From contig OY729431.1 in the NCBI GenBank assembly GCA_963422395.1, forward strand, positions 2,496,001-2,560,000: a stretch of 64,000 bases of DNA. Direction: 5' to 3'. How positions within the stretch are numbered: the stretch's first letter is position 1; every line of letters starts with the position of its first letter. Position numbers and translations under genes: made by a program. The DNA is from Vicinamibacteria bacterium. GTDB taxonomy: Bacteria; Acidobacteriota; Vicinamibacteria; Marinacidobacterales; Marinacidobacteraceae. The notes beneath the pieces were generated by a model. That model saw only the letters and a list, made by a program, of their open reading frames with translations. It was not told where the DNA came from and made no database searches. Shown in pieces: positions 2,803 through 41,735 of this stretch.

Positions 2803-4317
2803 CTACTCCAGCCGGTAGTTCGGCGCTTCCTTGGTGACCACCACATCGTGCGCATGCCCTTCGCGCTGCCCGGCCCCGGTGACCTGGACGAACTCGGCGC
2901 TCTCGGCGAGTTCAGCGATGGAGCGGCATCCGGTGTAGCCCATCCCCGAGCGGAGTCCGCCGACGAGCTGTTCCACCACCCCGGCCAGCGGCCCCTTCGT
3001 CGGAACCCGCCCTTCGATCCCTTCGGGGACCAGCTTCGACGGCTCGCGGCCGGTCTGGTAGTAGCGGTCCGCGGACCCGCCGCTCATCGCTCCGAGCGAC
3101 CCCATCCCTCGATACCCCTTGAAGGTGCGCCCCTGGTAGAGGATCGTCTCGCCGGGGCTCTCGTCGGTTCCGGCGAACAGATTGCCCACCATCACGCAAT
3201 CGGCGCCGGCGCCGATGGCTTTCACGATGTCGCCGCTGAAGCGGATGCCGCCATCGGCGATCAGCGGCGGACCGCTCGCCGGGCGCACCTGCCGGATCGC
3301 GGAGAACTGCGGCATTCCGGTTCCGGCCACCACTCGGGTGGTGCAGATCGAGCCGGGCCCCATGCCCACTTTCACTCCGTCGGCGCCGGCCTCCACCAGG
3401 TCGCGAGCAGCCTCGGCGGTGGCGATGTTGCCGGCCACCAGGTCCACGCCCTCGGGAAGGCGCTCCCGAAGCCGCCGCACGGTACCGAGGCCGGTCCCGG
3501 TGTGACCGTGCGCAGTGTCCACCACGATCGCATCTACCTGGCGCTCGGCGAGGAGTTCCGCGCGGGCCACCGCAGCCTCCCCCACGCCCACTGCGGCGGC
3601 ACAGCGAAGACGGCCGAAGTCGTCCTTGGTGGCGTCGGGGTAGGCCATCGCCTTCTGGATGTCCTTGACGGTGAGGAGGCCGGCGAGCGTCCCGTGCTCG
3701 TCGAGGACCGGCAGCTTTTCCACCCGGTGCTCGTGCAGGATGGCCTTCGCCTCGTCGAGGGTGGTGCCGAGCGGGGCGGTATGGAGGGGCGAGCGGGTCA
3801 TGAGCTCGGCCACCAGGAGATCGCCGCGGGTCACGAAGCGCAGGTCCCGGCTGGTCAGGATACCCACCAGCCGACCGGTCTCGACCACCGGCAGGCCGGA
3901 AATCCCGTGGCGCTCCATGAGCCCGAGCGCCAGCTCGACCGGAGCGTCGGGGGGAACGGTGACCGGATCCACCACCATGCCGCTCTCCGAGCGCTTCACC
4001 TTGGCCACCTCGTCGGCCTGCTCTTCGGCGGAGAGGTTGCGATGGATCACGCCGATGCCGCCGAGCTGAGCGATGGCGATGGCGAGCCTCGCCTCGGTGA
4101 CGGTGTCCATCGCAGCGCTGACCAGCGGGATGGCGAGGCCGATCCGGCGGCTGAAGCGAGTGCTCACCTCGGTGGCGGCGGGCAGCACCTCCGAATACCG
4201 CGGCTTCAGCAGAACATCGTCGAAAGTGAGCGCGACGGCCGGACCTCGAGCCGGCTCCCGGGGCAGCTCACGAGGTTCGAGAGCGTCTGACGAACCCTGC
4301 GGATCGGAGGTCGGCAC
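2803..4317 (-). CDS. guaB: IMP dehydrogenase
   Basis: [24 protein letters not shown] pair, catalytic [29 protein letters not shown]. Start estimated at GTG 4317; the longer ORF overlaps secA. Confidence 0.95.
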
Positions 4318-31032: not shown

Positions 31033-31333
31033 GTCAGGGTCTCCTCAGGATCTCCGGGAAGCGCACCGACCAGCGAGCACCGCGAACCGGAGAGGCCCCG
31101 GACGCTATCCGCTCGCGAGCCGAGCCGTCAATGGCCACTCGGGGGCTGCGCCGGGGGAGCTTCGGACAGGCGGTCGCAGGGGAGCGGACCGAGGCCCCAC
31201 GGAAAGCTGCTCTTCCCGCCTATAGAAGAGGATGTTGCGCTTGCTTCGCAGGGGCTCGATGGGTGTCCCCGCATGGATGACGATTTTTGTCCAGGTGATC
31301 GAGTATCCTGTCTTGCTTCAGACCCTCTCTGCG

Positions 31334-33586
31334 ATGCCTTCTCGATCTGATCACTATTTCGCGCACAGCGCCCCCTCCGAAAACCCGTCCTCGTGGCACC
31401 GGCTGGACGACCACCTCCGGCACACCGGAGACCGCGCCGCCGGCTTCCTCGAACGGGTCGGGCTCGCCCACTTCGGTCGGGCCGCCGGGCTCCTCCATGA
31501 CCTCGGCAAGTACACCGAGAAGTTCCAGCAGAGGCTCCGCGGCGGCCCGCGCGTGAATCATTCGACAGCCGGAGCCAAAATCGCGTGCGAACGCTATCCA
31601 GGCATCATCGGAAAAATGCTGGCATTCGGTGTTGCCGGCCATCACGCGGGACTTGCGAATGGTGTGAACGGCGAGAAAATCACTGCCCTCGCCGATCGGT
31701 TGCGCGAAAACACCCCCGAACTCGACCCGTTATGGAGCCAGGAAATACAACTCCCGCCGCTTGGTCCACCGCAGATCCAGAGCCGCAGTCGGGAGAACGC
31801 CGGATTTTCCGGGTCGTTCCTGATCCGCCTGCTGTTCTCGGCCCTGGTGGACGCAGACTATCTCGATACCGAGGCCTATTACGCAAGAATCGAGAAAACG
31901 AGTCCGAGTCGCGGAGGCCACCCCTCACTCGGAATACTTCGCGACCGCCTCGATGCCCACCTCGAAGGGCTCACCGCGCGGGCCTCGGCCAGCGAAGTGA
32001 ACGCGCTCCGCCGCGAAGTGCTGCACCACGCCAGAAAACGGGCAGTGGACACGCCCGGCCTCTTCACTCTCACGGTACCTACCGGCGGCGGCAAGACCCT
32101 CACTTCACTGTCGTTCGCCCTCCACCACGCCGTGCACCACGGGCTCGACCGGATCCTCTATGTCATCCCGTACATGAACATCATCGAACAGACGGCCGCT
32201 GTTTTCCGCGATGTCCTGCAAGACGACGAATCCGAGGGGCCGCACTTCGTGATCGAGCATCACAGCACCTTCGACGAGCAGCGAGTCGAGAAACGTTCCG
32301 GTAAAGAGAAACTCCGTCTCGCGATGGAGAATTGGGACGCTCCCATCGTGGTCACCACCGCCGTCCAGTTCTTCGAGAGCCTTTTCTCGAACCGCCCGTC
32401 CCGCTGCCGAAAACTGCACAACATCGCTGGCAGCGTCGTCGTCCTAGATGAGGCGCAGACTCTTCCCCTCGAATTCCTGCGCCCCTGCGTCGCCGCGATG
32501 GATGAGCTGGCGCGGAATTGGCGCGCCACCGTCGTCCTCTGCAGTGCCACGCAGCCGGCGCTGCGCGAGGAGAGCGGCTTCTGTGGCGGATTGCGCGAAG
32601 TGCGTGAACTCGCACCCCAACCGACTCGGCTCCAGCGAAGCCTAAAGCGAACTCGTATCCACCAAAAAGGCCCGATGGAGGACTCCGAGATCACCGAACG
32701 ATTGCGTGGAACGCCGCAGGCACTTTGCATCGTCAACACGCGGGCCCACGCACGGGCTCTGTACGAAGCAATCGAAGATCAGGATGGGGCCACGCACCTC
32801 ACCACTTCGATGTGCGCCCGTCACCGTCGGGAGATTCTGGAAGAAGTCCGCTCCCGGCTGACGATCGGTGAACCGATTCGGTTGATCGCCACCTCACTGG
32901 TCGAAGCCGGGGTGGACCTGGATTTTCCGGTCGTTTGGCGTGAGGAAGCAGGCCTCGAATCCATCATCCAGGCGGCAGGACGATGCAATCGGGAAGGGAA
33001 AGCGCCGTCCGGAGATGTGATCGTGTTCCGTTCGCAAGCCGGTGGTCGAGGATTGCCCGAGATACGGAAGGCCGCAGACGCTGCGCGCCAGGTCCTCCGG
33101 AAGCACCAGGATCCCATGTCTCTGCCCGCCATCCAGGAGTATTTCCAGACGCGCTACTGGATCGAAGGAGATAATGCCTTGGACACCAAGGGGATCCTTC
33201 CCATGCTCCGTGAACGGAAAAGGAGTCTCGACTTTCCTTTCGAAACGATCTCTCGTGCGTTCTGCCTGATCGAAACACCCATGGCCCCGGTGATCGTCCC
33301 CTACAGAGGCCGAGAGGGGAAAGACAGAACCGCAGACCGCCTGATCGCCGCTCTCGAGCATGAAGAGCGCCCCGGCTGGCTGGCGCGTAGTCTGCAGCCG
33401 TACACGGTCCCCGTTCCGCTGCTCGGCCGGAAATCTCTACTGGACTCCAGGGCCGCCCGGATCATCCGGGAGGCCGATTTCGACGAACAGTTCGTCGTCC
33501 TCGACAACCGAGACATCTATCGGGCGGACATCGGCCTCACCTGGGACGATCCAAGCTTTCACAGCGTCGAGGGGCTGATCTGTTGA
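31334..33586 (+). CDS. cas3: Cas3 HD nuclease-helicase (type I-C)
   Basis: YFAHS..WHRLDDHL, LLHDLGKY, SALVDADYLDT, PTGGGKT, DEAQ, IQAAGRCNREG. Confidence 0.97.
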   Translation: MPSRSDHYFAHSAPSENPSSWHRLDDHLRHTGDRAAGFLERVGLAHFGRAAGLLHDLGKYTEKFQQRLRGGPRVNHSTAGAKIACERYPGIIGKMLAFGVAGHHAGLANGVNGEKITALADRLRENTPELDPLWSQEIQLPPLGPPQIQSRSRENAGFSGSFLIRLLFSALVDADYLDTEAYYARIEKTSPSRGGHPSLGILRDRLDAHLEGLTARASASEVNALRREVLHHARKRAVDTPGLFTLTVPTGGGKTLTSLSFALHHAVHHGLDRILYVIPYMNIIEQTAAVFRDVLQDDESEGPHFVIEHHSTFDEQRVEKRSGKEKLRLAMENWDAPIVVTTAVQFFESLFSNRPSRCRKLHNIAGSVVVLDEAQTLPLEFLRPCVAAMDELARNWRATVVLCSATQPALREESGFCGGLREVRELAPQPTRLQRSLKRTRIHQKGPMEDSEITERLRGTPQALCIVNTRAHARALYEAIEDQDGATHLTTSMCARHRREILEEVRSRLTIGEPIRLIATSLVEAGVDLDFPVVWREEAGLESIIQAAGRCNREGKAPSGDVIVFRSQAGGRGLPEIRKAADAARQVLRKHQDPMSLPAIQEYFQTRYWIEGDNALDTKGILPMLRERKRSLDFPFETISRAFCLIETPMAPVIVPYRGREGKDRTADRLIAALEHEERPGWLARSLQPYTVPVPLLGRKSLLDSRAARIIREADFDEQFVVLDNRDIYRADIGLTWDDPSFHSVEGLIC

Positions 33587-33723
33587 ACCGGCAGGGATCC
33601 GTTCCAACGCAGCGAGGTGGAGTTGCGGCTTCCCCGGAGACCTCCTGGAATTCGGGTTCCTCACCATGCGAACGAAAAGAGCCATCCTTCCCAGCCATGA
33701 CGGGGGCCACCCGCTCCCAACGA

Positions 33724-33805
33724 GTCGCAGCACGGGGACTGAAACGGATGGCGAGTACCGATGAGGACTGTCGTCCCCGGCTCGCCCGGGGACTCGGATC
33801 GACGG
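33724..33805 (+). ncRNA. Putative crRNA-like regulatory mini-array (degenerate repeat, 24-nt spacer, degenerate repeat)
   Basis: 33724-33745 GTCGCAGCACGGGGACTGAAAC keeps 9 of 11 nt of the repeat 3' handle. 33770-33805 GTCGTCCCCGG-CTCGC-CCGGGGACTCGGATCGAC keeps the GTC start, a stem with compensatory changes and a CGGAT tail. Confidence 0.55.
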
Positions 33806-33834
33806 AGAGTACAGAAGTTCGGGGGAGGAAGACG

Positions 33835-34030
33835 ATGCCCGACTCCACTCATGAATGGCCGGAAAGTCCTTCGGACTCTGGAGCGCCAAGGATTCGAATG
33901 CGTGCGCCGGCGGGGAAGCCACCGCATCCTTCGAACCTCTGCCAGAGGCAGCGAACGGGTGACAGTCGCCGGGAAATAAGGCGACGAGCTACGGAAGGGA
34001 ACCCCGGTGGCGGTCTCCTTCGACCTGCTA
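33835..34030 (+). pseudogene. HicA-family toxin pseudogene
   Basis: GGAGG RBS and ATG 33835 out of frame with MNGRKVLRTLERQGFECVRRRGSHRIL..VTVAGK*GDELRKGT (HicA GSH and KGT motifs; in-frame TAA at 33977-33979). Confidence 0.75.
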
Positions 34031-34130
34031 CCACCAAGAGAGCTTTCCACTGCCGCCGCCTCGACTGCAGCGTACCGGGAACGACCCCGGAGCGGCTGAT
34101 GCGGGGCGGACTTCTCGCCGGGGCGGCCTG

Positions 34131-34802
34131 ATGTCGTACGGAGCAAGACTCCATGTGTGGGGCGATTACGCATGTTTCACTCGCCCCGAGATGAAGGCCG
34201 AGCGCGTCTCCTACGACGTCATGACACCGTCGGCAGCGCGTGGAATTCTGGAAGCGATCCATTGGAAGCCGGCGATCCGGTGGATCGTGGATCGGATCCA
34301 GGTGTTGAAACGGATCCGGTTCGAAACGATTCGAAGAAACGAACTCGGAAGCAAGATTCCGGCAGGAAACATCAGCGTCGCGATGCAGCGCGGCGACACC
34401 GGAGGTCTCGCCGTCTCGATCGAAAGCGACCGGCAGCAGCGCGCCGCCACCGTACTGCGCGATGTCGCTTATCTCATCGAAGCGCACTTCATCCTCACAC
34501 CCGTTGCAAACCCAGACGATACTCCGGCGAAACACGCCGCGATGTTCCACCGGCGCGCCGCTCGAGGGCAGTGCTTCCACCGACCGTATCTGGGGACCCG
34601 CGAGTTCCCGGCCCACTTCGCCCCGGTCCCGGATCCGCCGCCATCATCCTCCCTACCGACCGATCAGTGTGATCGTGATCTAGGCTGGATGCTGCACGAC
34701 CTCGACTACGCGAATGCCGCGTCGCCCAGATTCTTCCGCGCAACGCTCCGGAATGGCGTGGTGCATGTCCCGCCGCTTGATTCAGAGGAGGTCAAGGGAT
34801 GA
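34131..34802 (+). CDS. cas5: Cas5c (Cas5d)
   Basis: VWGDYACFTRPEMKAERVSYDVMTPSAARG, RRNE, GQCFHRPYLGTREF, DLGWMLHD. Confidence 0.97.
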   Translation: MSYGARLHVWGDYACFTRPEMKAERVSYDVMTPSAARGILEAIHWKPAIRWIVDRIQVLKRIRFETIRRNELGSKIPAGNISVAMQRGDTGGLAVSIESDRQQRAATVLRDVAYLIEAHFILTPVANPDDTPAKHAAMFHRRAARGQCFHRPYLGTREFPAHFAPVPDPPPSSSLPTDQCDRDLGWMLHDLDYANAASPRFFRATLRNGVVHVPPLDSEEVKG

Positions 34803-36568
34803 GCATCCTCCAAGCACTCATCCAGCGCTATGAGCGACAGGCAGCACGCGACCAGGCGCCGAAGTACGGCTTTTCGGAGCAGAAAATTTCCTATGCAATA
34901 GTAATCGATCGGAGCGGTCAGGCCATCGACACGATCGATCTGAGGGATACGAGCGGGAAGAAGCCGCGGCCCAGCAAACGCGAAGTGCCGAATCCCGTAG
35001 TCCGTACCGCCAAAATCCAACCCCAATTCCTGTGGGACAAGACTGCCTATGCCCTTGGAGTCAAGAAAGCCCAAACAGGTTCCGCAGTCCCCGCCGAACG
35101 GGGAGAGTACGATGCTTTCGTTTCCTGCCATCGGAAACTCCTCTCCTGTTCCGAAGATGATGGGCTCCAGGCATTTCTCGCCTTCCTCGATAACTGGCGG
35201 CCCGATCGCTACAGTGACCTCCGGAACAGCGACGACATGTTGGACACCAATGTCGTTTTTCGTTTCGAAGCCGATTCCAAATCGTTCTTGCACGACCGCC
35301 CGGCGGCGCGGGAAATCTGGGTGCGACTTCTGACAGGAAACGAGACCGAGCGACATCTGTGCCTGGTGACCGGCGAGCAACTCTCGATAGCCCGGGTGCA
35401 CTCCAAGATCAAGGGTGTCCGGGGCGCCCAGACTTCCGGGGCATCGATCGTCTCCTTCAACCAGAAGGCATTCAATTCTTTCGGAAAGGAACAGGGCGGG
35501 AACGCGCCGATCTCGGATCGCGCTGCTTTCGCATACACCACCTCACTGAACTCCCTTCTCGCCCGAGGCAGCCGCAATCGAATCCAGATCGGCGATACGA
35601 CGACTGTGTTCTGGGCAGACTCCGGAGACGATCCAGAGAGTGCCGAAGCCGCCGATAGCCTGTTCTCTGCGCTCATGGGCGCGCCGCCGACCGACGAAGA
35701 AGAGGCAGCAGTGGTCCGGGACAAAGTCGAAAAATTTCAAGCCGGGCGTCCGGTCGAATCTGTCGAGCCGGGCGTTCAGGAGGACACGCGCTTCTTCGTT
35801 CTTGGTCTCGCACCCAATGCGGCGCGCCTTTCCGTCCGATTCTGGCATGAAGACACGATCGGCCGCATGGGAGAACGGCTTCGAGAGCACTGGGGCGATC
35901 TTCATATCGAACCGGTCCCTTGGCACACGCCCCCGGATGCTTGGCGGCTCCTGCGCGAGACCGCCATTCAGGGCAAGTCGGAGAAAATACCGCCAGTGCT
36001 CAGCGGCACGCTCATGAGCGCGATCCTCCGGGGCAGCAGATACCCTCGATCGTTGTTGGCCAATGTATTGCTGCGGATGCGCTCCGACGGCAACATCAAT
36101 GGGTTGCGTGCTGCGATCTGCAAGGCATGTCTCGCCCGCGACCATCGCTTCGGTCTCGAAGAGGAGGCACTCCCCGTGAGTCTAAACCCCGACGAAAAAA
36201 ACCCGGCCTATCGCCTCGGCAGACTGTTCGCCATCTATGAAGGCGTTCAGCAGGCCGCGATGGGACGACGGGTGAACGTGACGATCAAGGATCAGTTCTA
36301 CGGATCCGCGTCCGCCACCCCGGCCGCGGTCTTTCCGGTAATCAACCGGAAGGCCGCCCACCACCTCGGATCCCTTCGCAAGGACAAAGGGGGGTTGGCC
36401 GTCTGGTACGAACGACACCTGGACGCGGTATTCGATGGCTTCGAGACGGCGTTCCCGCGCAGCCTCGGGATCGAGGAACAGGGCCGCTTCACCATCGGCT
36501 ATTACCACCAGCGGGCAAGCCTCAAAGGGAAGCCCGCCAACGACAGCGTCGAGACGCCGGAGGAATGA
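34799..36568 (+). CDS. cas8c: Cas8c/Csd1
   Basis: [50 protein letters not shown]. Confidence 0.96.
36176..36568 (+). CDS. cas11: Internally translated Cas11c small subunit, in frame within cas8c
   Basis: GAGGAGG at 36161-36167 then in-frame GTG at 36176 starting [19 protein letters not shown]; internal Cas11 initiation is established for type I-C. Confidence 0.75.
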
Positions 36569-37509
36569 ACATCATGTCAGCAATCCGTAACCGATACGAT
36601 TTCGTGTATCTGTTCGACATCTCCAACGGAAACCCCAACGGAGATCCCGATGCCGGAAACCTGCCCCGGCTCGATCCAGAAACCAACCAGGGTCTCGTCA
36701 CCGATGTGTGCCTCAAGCGAAAGATTCGAAATTTCGTCACGATGACGAAGGGGGGCGAACCACCGTATGGAATCTATATCGCCGAGCGTGCCGTGCTGGA
36801 GCGGCTGCAGCAGCGTGCCTGGGATGCGATCGTCCCGGACGCCAGCGACGAAGCTCGGAAAAAGTTGCCGAAAGACGAGGCAAAGGCGCGAAAACTGACC
36901 CGATGGATGTGCGACAATTTCTTCGATGTACGGACATTCGGCGCGGTGATGTCCACGAAGGGCGCCAACTGCGGCCAGGTCCGGGGGCCAGTCCAGTTCT
37001 CGTTCGGCCGATCCGTTGAACCGATCGTCCCGCTGGAGGTTTCGATCACCAGGATGGCGGCGACCACACAGAAGGACGCCGACGAGAAGGGCGATGTTCG
37101 CACGATGGGGCGCAAGTACATCGTGCCGTACGGTCTGTATCGCGCCCACGGCTTCGTCTCGGCATGCCTGGCCGGAAACGGTGCCGGGGGAACCGGCTTC
37201 TCGCAAGAAGACCTGGATCTGGTGTGGACCGCCCTCGAACAGATGTTCGATCACGACCGCTCCGCGGCAAGGGGCGAGATGACAGCCCGCCGTCTCATCA
37301 TATTCCGCCACGAGAGCACGCTCGGCAACACCGCCGCCCACCGACTCTTCGACCGCGTCCGGGTTTCGCGGATCCACGAGGAGCAGGAAGCCTCCCTCGG
37401 TGCACCTGCTTCACGGAGCCTGCCCCCGGCACGGTCGTACTCCGATTACTCCGTTGTCGTGGATGCCGAAAACCTTCCTGAAGGGATCACGATCCTGGAT
37501 CGGATCTGA
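36565..37509 (+). CDS. cas7: Cas7/Csd2
   Basis: [52 protein letters not shown]. Confidence 0.97.
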
Positions 37510-39686: not shown

Positions 39687-41735
39687 GTCGCCCCCCGCAC
39701 GGGGGGCGCGGATTGAAACTTCTGGAATCGCACATTGGAGACATTGAATGCGGTGTCGCCCCCCGCACGGGGGGCGCGGATTGAAACCGTGAGGCTGTCC
39801 AGGATCTCTCCTGCTATGTATGGTCGCCCCCCGCACGGGGGGCGCGGATTGAAACTCCTTTGCCGGCTTGCCGGCGGTTGATGTTGGAGTCGCCCCCCGC
39901 ACGGGGGGCGCGGATTGAAACATCGCAGTCCGCGCATTTCCTCGCGTCGCTCTTTGTCGCCCCCCGCACGGGGGGCGCGGATTGAAACGCACGCTGGGGC
40001 AGGAAAGCCGAAGAGCTCTATGTCGCCCCCCGCACGGGGGGCGCGGATTGAAACTCATCGAACCGGGGGCAAGCCCCCCAAAGGAAAAAGTCGCCCCCCG
40101 CACGGGGGGCGCGGATTGAAACATCGTGTTTTTCCTTTGCCGGCGGGCTGCCGGCGTCGCCCCCCGCACGGGGGGCGCGGATTGAAACTGATCAGGATTG
40201 ACAATCGCTAGCCGACTGCGCGACGTCGCCCCCCGCACGGGGGGCGCGGATTGAAACGAGTGAACGGAACGCCATTCGCGTAGGCAGCCGAGTCGCCCCC
40301 CGCACGGGGGGCGCGGATTGAAACTCGTCTGTACGGCGTGCTGGGCAGCCCGTAGGGCAGCGTCGCCCCCCGCACGGGGGGCGCGGATTGAAACTCGTGT
40401 ACGGGCTGGTCAGCCCGCCCAGCCCAGCGTCGCCCCCCGCACGGGGGGCGCGGATTGAAACAGTGGGGTGCCGCCGCCGCGCAGTCCGCGCAAAGTCGCC
40501 CCCCGCACGGGGGGCGCGGATTGAAACCCTCTCTGGTCGCGATCATCGGCAGTCTGCCGCGTCGCCCCCCGCACGGGGGGCGCGGATTGAAACCCCACTT
40601 ACTGCCACGCTGCCCTACCCCATGCGTCGCCCCCCGCACGGGGGGCGCGGATTGAAACCATATCCGCATCGCATTCCGCGCAGGCCTTCACGGTCGCCCC
40701 CCGCACGGGGGGCGCGGATTGAAACTATTCCATCCGGACTTGGTCCGACACCGCCTTGAGTCGCCCCCCGCACGGGGGGCGCGGATTGAAACCACTTCCT
40801 GCTGACTGCGGCAGTCGGCATCTTGGTCGCCCCCCGCACGGGGGGCGCGGATTGAAACTTTGTCTCCTCCTCGATTTCCGCCCATCGGCGAAGGACGTCG
40901 CCCCCCGCACGGGGGGCGCGGATTGAAACTCCTTTGGCGGCCGGCGGCCGCCGTGTTGTTTGAGTCGCCCCCCGCACGGGGGGCGCGGATTGAAACGCTA
41001 GGCGGGCGTTGGATTTGCGCCTCCCGCCGCCGGTCGCCCCCCGCACGGGGGGCGCGGATTGAAACGTTGGATGCGGCCCGGACCAAAGCTCCTTGCATGC
41101 GTCGCCCCCCGCACGGGGGGCGCGGATTGAAACCTCCTTTCGGCGGCCGGCGGCCTCCGTGTTTGAGTCGCCCCCCGCACGGGGGGCGCGGATTGAAACG
41201 GTTGCGATTCGTGGAGTATGTCTGCTCGAATCGGGTCGCCCCCCGCACGGGGGGCGCGGATTGAAACCCTTCATCGCAACCGAACACCGCCCCCGGCGGC
41301 GTCGCCCCCCGCACGGGGGGCGCGGATTGAAACCTTTGGCGCCGGGTTAGGCGCCGGTTTGATTCGCGTCGCCCCCCGCACGGGGGGCGCGGATTGAAAC
41401 CAAGTGCACCTTGCCGGAGTGCTTTGAGGACCTGGGTCGCCCCCCGCACGGGGGGCGCGGATTGAAACTTCCTGGATTCGCGGCGATGATGCCGTGTTTC
41501 CTGTCGCCCCCCGCACGGGGGGCGCGGATTGAAACCGCGCGCGTGTCTGTCCCTAGTGGGGACGAGCTGCGTCGCCCCCCGCACGGGGGGCGCGGATTGA
41601 AACGCCAAAGCATCGCTGACGCTCGCGAAGCCCGCGGTCGCCCCCCGCACGGAGGGCGCGGATTGAAACTCCATGGATTGGCGCCGAGGAACCGGTGTTC
41701 CCGTCGCCCCCCGCGCGGGGGGCGCGGATTGAAAC
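39687..41735 (+). CRISPR. Type I-C CRISPR array: 31 repeats of 33 nt (GTCGCCCCCCGCACGGGGGGCGCGGATTGAAAC) and 30 spacers of ~32-38 nt
   Basis: Counted directly. The last two repeats (41637, 41703) each carry one substitution, marking the trailer end. Confidence 0.99.

Follow-up and report, generated by a model that had tools for sequence, protein, structure and literature searches.

A degenerate mini-CRISPR beside a hicA pseudogene in a type I-C locus, probably the relic of a Cascade-guarded toxin cassette

Introduction

Does a short repeat-like element inside a cas operon still guide Cascade, or is it what remains of a guide that once did? The question is raised by a 64,000-nt stretch of DNA from a Vicinamibacteria bacterium (contig OY729431.1, positions 2,496,001 to 2,560,000; hereafter the window), in which the gap between cas3 and cas5c of a complete type I-C locus is 544 nt long and holds a mini-array and a remnant of the toxin gene hicA. 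The original prediction, made from the letters of the window, took the mini-array for a CreA/CreR-type unit through which Cascade regulates cas3 or the neighbouring toxin. In the reading that we consider probable, positions 33724-33803 are a genuine degenerate mini-CRISPR, the gene of a crRNA-like guide RNA (crlRNA) of the CreA/CreR/CRISIS kind, whose circuit in the window has eroded and is most likely a relic.

Guides of this kind are described, in the main texts of the reports, from several CRISPR-Cas subtypes. CreTA joins a CreA guide to an RNA toxin in type I-B (10.1101/2023.03.10.532045, 10.1101/2023.03.03.530964), and CrePA joins a CreA guide to a protein toxin in type I-F (10.1101/2024.01.05.574328). 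CreR guides Cascade to cas promoters, and creA-like elements have been noticed by hand in type I-C loci (Liu et al., 10.1101/2023.03.10.532045). Shmakov et al. predicted mini-array control of toxin-antitoxin genes carried as cargo, with worked cases from type I-D and an enrichment of toxin-antitoxin genes named for I-B, I-E, I-F1 and I-D (10.1101/2023.03.03.530964). In type I-C, defence genes carried as cargo between cas3 and cas5c are repressed by crlRNAs whose targets have TTC or TTA protospacer adjacent motifs (PAMs) and mismatches at positions 6 and 12 (10.1101/2024.12.27.630466).

Results and discussion

Anatomy of the mini-array

The unit lies in an intergenic region of the cas operon on the + strand and points the same way as the array. 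It consists of a spacer-like sequence between two repeat-like ones (Table 1): a first repeat, psiR1, that keeps the 3' handle, a pseudo-spacer, psiS, and a second repeat, psiR2, that keeps the stem-loop. The letters and positions on which the original prediction was built (psiR1, the 24-nt spacer, psiR2 and a site at 31275-31285 with flank CAT) were all confirmed. The last 11 nt of psiR1 (33735-33745, GGGACTGAAAC), which would be the 5' handle of the RNA, are identical to the array repeat (CGGATTGAAAC) at nine of 11 positions. Longer alignments with the array repeat show identity in 25 of 36 columns for psiR2 and in 20 of 33 for psiR1. The psiR2 hairpin appears both in the minimum free energy fold and as an inverted repeat; the stem 5' of the handle has only 2 bp, against at least 4 bp in 12 of the 15 relatives described below.

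A covariance model of psiR2 was made from alignment A1, which holds the 15 relatives and excludes the window; it has five modelled base pairs, four of them with changes on both sides. Applied unfiltered to the 64-kb window, this model found the 31 array repeats and 33770-33805 (28.9 bits, E 1.5e-4), while the next match outside the array reached 16.3 bits (E 0.12). Since a model built from relatives only picks out 33770-33805, the resemblance to a repeat goes beyond chance. The psiR2 of the window is also nearer to those of two relatives, L026 (26/31) and L023 (26/32), than to its own array repeat (22/31), which argues that the unit was inherited with a cassette and is not a recent copy from the local array.

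We regard it as extremely improbable that the unit is a mere hairpin, or a chance repeat-like sequence, with no CRISPR ancestry. The fold of 33670-33830 as a whole is no more stable than that of shuffled sequences (z -0.5) and an Rfam scan of 33400-34300 gave nothing above noise, as such an origin would have it, but the relatives' covariance model matches psiR2 specifically, and handle, pseudo-spacer, psiR2 and hicA start align column by column with nine relatives. The original prediction had allowed that 33681-33752 might be only a hairpin. The inverted repeat within it, 33681-33694 against 33739-33752 with 11 of 14 positions complementary, is instead a target remnant paired with the handle, that is, the remnant of a pseudo-spacer/target pair (see below).

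A separate likeness was seen within the unit. Positions 33730-33761, the 3' part of psiR1 and the start of the pseudo-spacer, resemble 33784-33815 at 72% over 32 nt with a spacing of 54. Read in the register of the spacer, they share 12 of 16 letters, a level that only 0.016% of random 16-mers from the window attain. A repeat-spacer unit may have been duplicated in tandem long ago; no such likeness was seen by eye in the relatives.

A homologous cassette in related type I-C loci

The original prediction had proposed aligning the cas3-cas5 gaps of related loci. A set of 80 type I-C loci was retrieved on the similarity of their Cas5c (61-77% identity), and the limits of the gap, where cas3 ends and cas5c begins, were sought in every one. 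Nine had no cas3 end in the locus and 12 had gaps shorter than 40 nt, which left 59 whose gap is bounded on both sides and measures 40 nt or more. Of 60 gaps, 25 were flagged by a loose pattern, and 16 were kept by eye, 15 from relatives and that of the window, as having a handle with at most two mismatches, a G+C-rich stem and a GGAT-like tail. Those dropped were L012 and L013, a single record filed twice in which the match falls inside hicA, and L040, L060, L062, L067, L072, L073 and L077, which have A+T-rich weak hairpins in long gaps. By eye L012/L013, L022 and L059 have atypical or partial units, which are left out of the counts.

A clear two-repeat unit on the same strand was thus found in 15 of the relatives' 59 gaps. 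It has a handle near GGATTGAAAC, a spacer-like stretch of 21-35 nt and a G+C-rich hairpin followed by G(T/C)GGAT. Full-length hicA follows the unit in nine of the 15 (L016, L017, L019, L023, L025, L026, L027, L029 and L031), and in those nine the next feature is an opposite-strand open reading frame (ORF) of 100-118 residues that overlaps the 3' end of hicA and encodes a HicB-like protein. In a tblastn search of the 59 gaps, hicA was found in 12 and the HicB-like ORF in 13, counts in which L012/L013 are one record filed twice. The order of the cassette, between cas3 and cas5c, is promoter, psiR1, pseudo-spacer, psiR2, hicA and a convergent HicB-like gene. The two genes overlap by about 40 nt at their 3' ends and do not form one operon as in classical hicAB; in L016, for instance, hicA lies at 3353-3562 (+) and the HicB-like gene at 3519-3875 (-), and 11 other loci are arranged likewise.

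In alignment A4 (the window and nine relatives) the handle, the spacer-like stretch, psiR2 and the hicA start share columns, and the handle columns GG..GAAA are invariant in all ten sequences. On this alignment the window unit is homologous to the cassette of the related I-C loci, and with the conserved handle and psiR2 the degenerate mini-CRISPR of the original prediction gains support from ancestry as well as from anatomy. At the DNA level the 544-nt gap had no relative among 60 genomes of the same family, order or class; the sole match, 26 nt in a cell-wall gene of one of them (G056), was set aside as chance.

Several loci carry part of the cassette. L011, the closest relative, has the unit and a perfectly scoring target (see below) without hicA or a HicB-like gene, and cas5c follows directly. 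In the gap of L015 the HicB-like gene alone remains. L022 has a cas3-cas5c gap of 3.8 kb, as compared with about 800-900 nt in the other cassette-bearing relatives; there, at about 2850-3140 of the gap, CGCACCCAAC stands in place of the psiR1 handle, and pseudo-spacer, psiR2, hicA and HicB-like gene are kept.

In most of the relatives' gaps an ATG (GATG or CATG) recurs about 30-40 nt upstream of the hicA ATG, in another frame (A4 columns 305-320). It may be a short upstream ORF or a coincidence.

Pseudo-spacers of the relatives match a promoter-like site just upstream

Pairing was scored over pseudo-spacer positions 1-18 without 6, 12 and 18, giving 15 counted positions, and in all 15 units the search took in both strands of the entire sequence before the handle, with 100 nt of cas3 included. 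In 11 of the 15 relatives the best site has a TTC or TTT PAM and matches at 12-15 of the 15 positions: 15 in L011 and L023; 14 in L025, L027 and L031; 13 in L017, L056 and L058; and 12 in L026, L046 and L047. Only 0-3 of 200 shuffled pseudo-spacers reached these eleven scores. Pseudo-spacers of other loci averaged 5.5-8.5 with that PAM, high non-self values occurring only between the close pair L017/L027. All eleven targets are on the strand opposite the mini-array. Their distance upstream from the start of the pseudo-spacer is 57-77 nt, and 169-336 nt if a small ORF lies between. In the best cases (L011, L023, L025 and L027) the mismatches are at positions 6, 12 and 18. When L023, L025 and L026 are compared, pseudo-spacer and target differ together within groups.

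The protospacers are overlapped or adjoined by promoter-like hexamers. In a looser promoter scan, pairs of promoter-like hexamers were found in all 13 relatives scanned, and nine of them overlap the protospacer; in L023, L025 and L026 the hexamer TTGCAT is the reverse complement of protospacer positions 1-6. The order of the parts, the PAM-flanked pairing and the overlap with hexamers resembling a -35 region are thus features that can be read from the sequences of the intact relatives.

The same arrangement was seen in a metagenome set, where a stricter pattern found units in five of 62 stretches. Two of these, L091 and L111, repeat L011 and L058. L094 (14 of 15, TTC) and L117 (13 of 15, TTC) add two targets, and the fifth, L108, was rejected because its target score is at the level of shuffles.

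The HicB-like partner in the relatives

By sequence, the HicB-like ORF of the relatives matched nothing in Pfam, NCBIfam or the PDB. We therefore turned to its structure as modelled by AlphaFold2 from a 12-sequence alignment, with a mean predicted local distance difference test score (pLDDT) of 77.7. The top rows of a Foldseek search with this model are HicB antitoxins, the matches being weak (E 0.05 and worse). On re-alignment the nine best chains are HicB antitoxins or close structural relatives, with Z of 6.2-8.6; for the best, 6g1c_B, Z is 8.6 with a root mean square deviation of 4.0 over 84 aligned residues, a Z of a size that is common and counts as moderate evidence. All nine matches span model residues 1 to about 100, the toxin-binding N-domain, and nowhere does the protein look like the ribbon-helix-helix or helix-turn-helix domain found in classical HicB. 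This moderate evidence suggests that the protein has the HicB N-domain fold without a DNA-binding domain.

We also compared the predicted complex of HicA and the HicB-like protein with control pairs. The pair scored 0.43, and the best of three controls 0.00; the prediction runs agree in 100% of contacts and the partner has pLDDT of at least 64. The mark applied here is reached by 58 of 80 solved complexes and by two of 110 mismatched pairs, and only seven of the 80 solved complexes, together with both passing mismatches, reach it at 0.60 or under. Solved HicAB complexes exist, and the pass may reflect structures already known to the predictor; the prediction lends weak support to a pairing of HicA with the HicB-like protein.

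The toxin gene of the window is broken

The hicA remnant of the window encodes 42 codons before an in-frame TAA (Table 1). Its product matches positions 1-37 of the 58 of the Pfam HicA_toxin profile (PF07927, E 1.8e-8), short of a full-length domain. With X at the stop it is 31-44% identical to 11 relatives (alignment A3), in which hicA is full length and the stop column holds E, G, D, L or V. Past the stop, nearly invariant residues of the C-terminal helix (I, Q, S and L of TLASIRRQSGLP) are lost in the window. Contigs from three runs in two studies carry identical letters over 33000-34326, and one of these runs may be the source of this DNA. Because contigs from two studies agree, the stop is not an error of a single assembly. 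A tblastn search of the window gap with the relatives' HicB-like proteins found no HicB-like gene at E up to 1e-3. With hicA stopped and no PAM at the target (see below), no functional toxin gene with a targeted promoter adjoins the mini-array.

It could be proposed that the broken hicA and the mini-array still act jointly, a toxic 42-residue fragment or a read-through product being held in check by Cascade and the crlRNA. We think this very unlikely. The region of the GSH motif is indeed kept, but the stop removes the C-terminal third and with it the nearly invariant residues, there is neither an antitoxin gene nor a PAM at the target, and no Shine-Dalgarno sequence precedes the hicA ATG at 33851; the GGAGGA at 33824-33829 serves an ATG of another frame.

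That ATG, at 33835, with its strong Shine-Dalgarno sequence, opens a frame of 98 codons (33835-34131) that crosses the hicA remnant in another frame and closes with a TGATG, which overlaps the start of cas5c. The 182-aa ORF that encloses it has no Pfam match. In L011 a 23-codon frame with the same TGATG overlap was seen by eye. The 33835 frame is either a spurious GC-rich frame or a device for the translational coupling of cas5c.

Candidate targets of the window pseudo-spacer

Upstream of the window unit, GGATGGC, the reverse complement of 33681-33687, equals pseudo-spacer positions 1-7. This site is on the same strand and at the same offset as the targets in the relatives, 59 nt upstream of the pseudo-spacer start, as compared with 57-79 nt. 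Seed runs of at least six occur at 73 sites in about 128,000 window positions, and by this post hoc estimate about 0.013 would be expected in the homologous interval of 23 positions. We read 33681-33690 as the probable remnant of the ancestral target. As a working site it is poor: it scores 10 of 15, a value reached by 85 of 200 shuffles, and GAA stands in the place of the PAM. A search of 33400-34250 found no sigma-70-like promoter and no terminator-like site, and a looser promoter scan around the target position found none either.

The original prediction had favoured 31275-31285, upstream of cas3, and had suggested that Cascade autoregulates cas3 through it. That proposal did not hold up. 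The site matches nine of ten pairing seed positions, as do 390 sites in the genome, eight of them in the window, and its seed run of eight is equalled or bettered so that it is one of nine such sites in the window. For a run of eight to fall so near the cas3 ATG, no more than 60 nt away, is slightly out of the ordinary (about 0.014 expected in 200 positions). Its flank is CAT, and in none of the 14 relatives for which this sequence is available does the pseudo-spacer match upstream of cas3 (best scores 8-10 of 15, none with TTC).

The genome-wide search that the original prediction had proposed turned up no place where TTC, TTT or CTC flanks a perfect 10-nt seed. No PAM-flanked promoter target was found for the window pseudo-spacer, and the best local sites are flanked by GAA, CAT and GGA. 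Three TTC-flanked matches in the genome proved to be one repeated element with a seed mismatch at position 5 and were rejected. They lie outside the window at 2130444, 2130931 and 2205744 of G000:C1, where TTC is followed by GGATTCCGAGTCACGA, which matches the pseudo-spacer except at positions 5, 6, 12 and 13. This thrice-repeated site is probably chance, eight TTC-flanked near-seed matches having been seen as compared with about six expected.

Relic or working regulator

We favour a relic because hicA is broken, the HicB-like gene is gone, there is no promoter-like site, and the target is reduced to 7 nt without a PAM. The toxin part of the original prediction can be divided accordingly: in the relatives hicA appears from the sequences to be the regulated cargo, which bears out the link to the toxin, and present-day regulation of a toxin in the window does not stand. 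Read-through transcription from cas3 to cas5 might still supply an RNA of the relic that is excised and taken up by Cascade.

A number of observations weigh against this conclusion or against the comparison behind it. The cas genes and the array are intact, which implies that Cascade is probably made and could load RNA from the mini-array. The 8-bp stem of psiR2 is perfect, and the handle retains the columns that are invariant in the relatives, so selection could still be acting. The weak stem of psiR1 is not diagnostic, as L011, L026 and L057, which have good targets or handles, likewise lack a stem before the handle. The PAMs demanded of a target in the window are those of the relatives and of published I-C systems rather than a measured preference of this Cas8c; viral contigs contained nothing identical to spacers 1 and 2, so neither gave a protospacer. 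Only sigma-70 consensus sites are covered by the promoter scan. The closest Cas5c among genome and metagenome contigs is 77% identical, too distant for conservation of this particular pseudo-spacer to be judged. The relatives fall into related groups (L017/L027, L023/L025/L026 and L016/L019/L029) and amount to fewer than 15 independent cases. Nor do all of them have a good target. Three of the 15 lack one with a canonical PAM: L029 has no site, and the best targets of L016 and L019 score 12 and 11 of 15 in the homologous place with flank GTC, due either to decay or to a looser PAM requirement when binding is not followed by cleavage. In L057 the target is weak, with a score of 11 on the + strand that was reached by 11 of 200 shuffles.

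Such points feed the view that the mini-array is still a working CreR-like regulator. Its RNA would be made along with the cas operon, cut by Cas5c and taken up by Cascade, and through short pairing it would damp a promoter at 31275 (cas3) or at 33681-33687. In addition to the intact Cascade genes and array, the perfect stem and the conserved handle, this view can draw on the mildly unusual location of both sites and on L011, where a mini-array with a 15/15 target and no hicAB stands directly before cas5c and indicates that toxin-free CreR-like versions exist in the clade. We nevertheless consider it unlikely. Neither site has a TTC, TTT or TTA PAM, although such a PAM accompanies all the good targets in the relatives and the I-C cases in the main text of 10.1101/2024.12.27.630466; the 15-position score is at shuffle level, the region upstream of cas3 is targeted in none of the 14 relatives, and no promoter-like site adjoins 33681-33690.

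An intermediate state, in which the locus is a dying Cascade-guarded toxin module, also seems to us rather improbable. Here hicA and the HicB-like gene would have decayed while the guide is still made from the cas3-cas5 transcript and occupies Cascade, as a weak regulator of Cas or a competitor of immune crRNAs.

Proposed mechanism in intact relatives and comparison with known systems

By extension from published I-C crlRNAs, one transcript from the targeted promoter would carry both mini-array and hicA in an intact cassette. Cas5c would cut out a crlRNA with an 11-nt 5' handle, and Cascade loaded with it would bind the promoter without recruiting Cas3, silencing the crlRNA-hicA transcript. 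If Cascade were lost or inhibited, HicA would rise. The HicB-like protein could buffer basal HicA; promoter control, normally the task of HicB, would be done by Cascade.

The nearest described system is CRISIS (Shu et al., 10.1101/2024.12.27.630466), which according to its main text belongs to the same subtype and occupies the same slot between cas3 and cas5c. There, too, the crlRNA comes from a repeat-like unit and has an 11-nt 5' handle, its pseudo-spacer matches a PAM-flanked site in the promoter of the cargo, and the units linked to Gabija have both psiR1 and psiR2. The arrangement differs. A CRISIS locus has its target first, then the cargo and then the unit, with cas5c immediately behind. 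In the present clade the unit comes ahead of its cargo and its target is the promoter that lies immediately 5' of it, and the copy in the window is eroded. The cargo is also different, a HicA/HicB-like pair; the string 'hic' is absent from the CRISIS main text.

As described in the main texts of the reports cited above, CreTA and CrePA have in common with the clade a degenerate mini-CRISPR RNA that makes Cascade repress the promoter of an adjacent toxin, such that the cell depends on an active effector. They belong to other subtypes, and here the toxin is an RNase of the type II family, HicA, with a protein antitoxin-like partner, a case known from sequence alone, and the toxin is dead in the window. 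The likeness to CreR, as reported by Liu et al. in their main text, is that of a stand-alone creA-like element in a cas intergenic region with a target adjoining the promoter of an effector gene. L011 fits this description; the window differs in that no PAM-flanked target was found at a cas promoter. The mini-arrays in the main text of Shmakov et al. also have two repeats and a spacer partly complementary to the promoter of cargo inside the cas locus, with variable cargo and relatives that are empty or keep the mini-array only. 'I-C' and 'HicA' do not occur in that main text (10.1101/2023.03.03.530964).

In comparison with type II HicAB systems (PF07927; PDB 6g1c, 6g26, 4p78 and 6hpb), the HicA domain is shared and the partner in the relatives appears to have the fold of the HicB N-terminal domain. 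Unlike HicB, this partner has no C-terminal DNA-binding domain, and its gene is convergent with hicA, overlapping the hicA 3' end, rather than part of one operon. In the window hicA is a pseudogene and no HicB antitoxin gene is adjacent. Neither a HicA/HicB cargo nor a guide that precedes the toxin and targets the promoter just upstream was found in the searchable main texts, and supplements may list such loci. Among the papers listed on HicA together with CreTA, Cas13a with HicAB was the one case that looked relevant, and its mechanism is different. The window unit is accordingly a member of the crlRNA family by anatomy and ancestry that lacks the PAM-flanked promoter target of a functional one.

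For this genome the result is a point of annotation, a degenerate mini-CRISPR and a hicA pseudogene in an otherwise intact I-C locus, and matters little. The comparative result is more useful, as it describes a type I-C clade with HicA and a HicB-like protein placed behind a guide to the promoter directly upstream. Such a cassette brings a classical family of type II toxins under the logic of CreTA, CrePA and CRISIS, in which the effector represses harmful cargo and its loss or inhibition is punished. Different stages at which the cassette is gained or lost can also be seen in the clade: some loci have all of it, L011 has the guide without the genes, L015 only the antitoxin-like gene, and L022 a disrupted psiR1, and in the window the copy is eroded. 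The pseudo-spacer/promoter pairs with mismatches at positions 6, 12 and 18 are test cases for the pairing that I-C Cascade needs in order to bind without cutting.

The type I-C locus and its array

All genes of the locus, from cas3 through cas2, and the array behind them are on the + strand (Table 1); Pfam was run on the main ORFs.

Table 1. Positions of the mini-array, the hicA remnant, the candidate targets and the type I-C genes in the window
Feature	Position	Strand	Remarks
psiR1, shortened repeat	33724..33745	+	GTCGCAGCACGGGGACTGAAAC
Pseudo-spacer (psiS)	33746..33769	+	GGATGGCGAGTACCGATGAGGACT, 24 nt; relatives' pseudo-spacers 21-35 nt
psiR2	33770..33803	+	perfect 8-bp stem 33773-33780 GTCCCCGG / 33786-33793 CCGGGGAC, 5-nt loop, then TCGGATCGAC
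hicA pseudogene	33851..33979	+	42 codons, then in-frame TAA 33977-33979; diverged hicA-derived sequence to about 34096
Probable ancestral-target remnant	33681..33690	-	GGATGGC (reverse complement of 33681-33687) = pseudo-spacer positions 1-7; PAM position 33688-33690 GAA
Candidate target of the original prediction	31275..31285	+	GGATGACGATT, flank CAT; 49 nt before cas3 ATG; judged a chance match
cas3	31334..33586	+	751 aa from ATG at 31334; Pfam HD, DEAD and Cas3-like_C_2 on ORF; start MPSRSDHYFAHS
cas5c	34131..34802	+	Pfam Cas_Cas5d, E 8e-46
cas8c	34799..36568	+	Pfam Cas_Csd1, full-length match
cas7	36565..37509	+	Pfam Cas_Cas7, full-length match
cas4, cas1, cas2 ORFs	up to 39507	+	putative, assigned by usual place and length
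CRISPR array	39687..41735	+	31 repeats GTCGCCCCCCGCACGGGGGGCGCGGATTGAAAC, 30 spacers of 32-38 nt

The last two repeats of the array each carry one change, which places the leader on the cas2 side. None of the spacers has a full-length match in the organism's own genome. Spacers 3, 19 and 22 (39856-39888, 40930-40963 and 41134-41166), and also spacers 7 and 25, are variants of one sequence, TCCTTTGSCGGC...GTGTT..TTGA, and two of these variants are 88% alike, flanks included. Spacers thus seem to have been acquired more than once from one region of related invaders.

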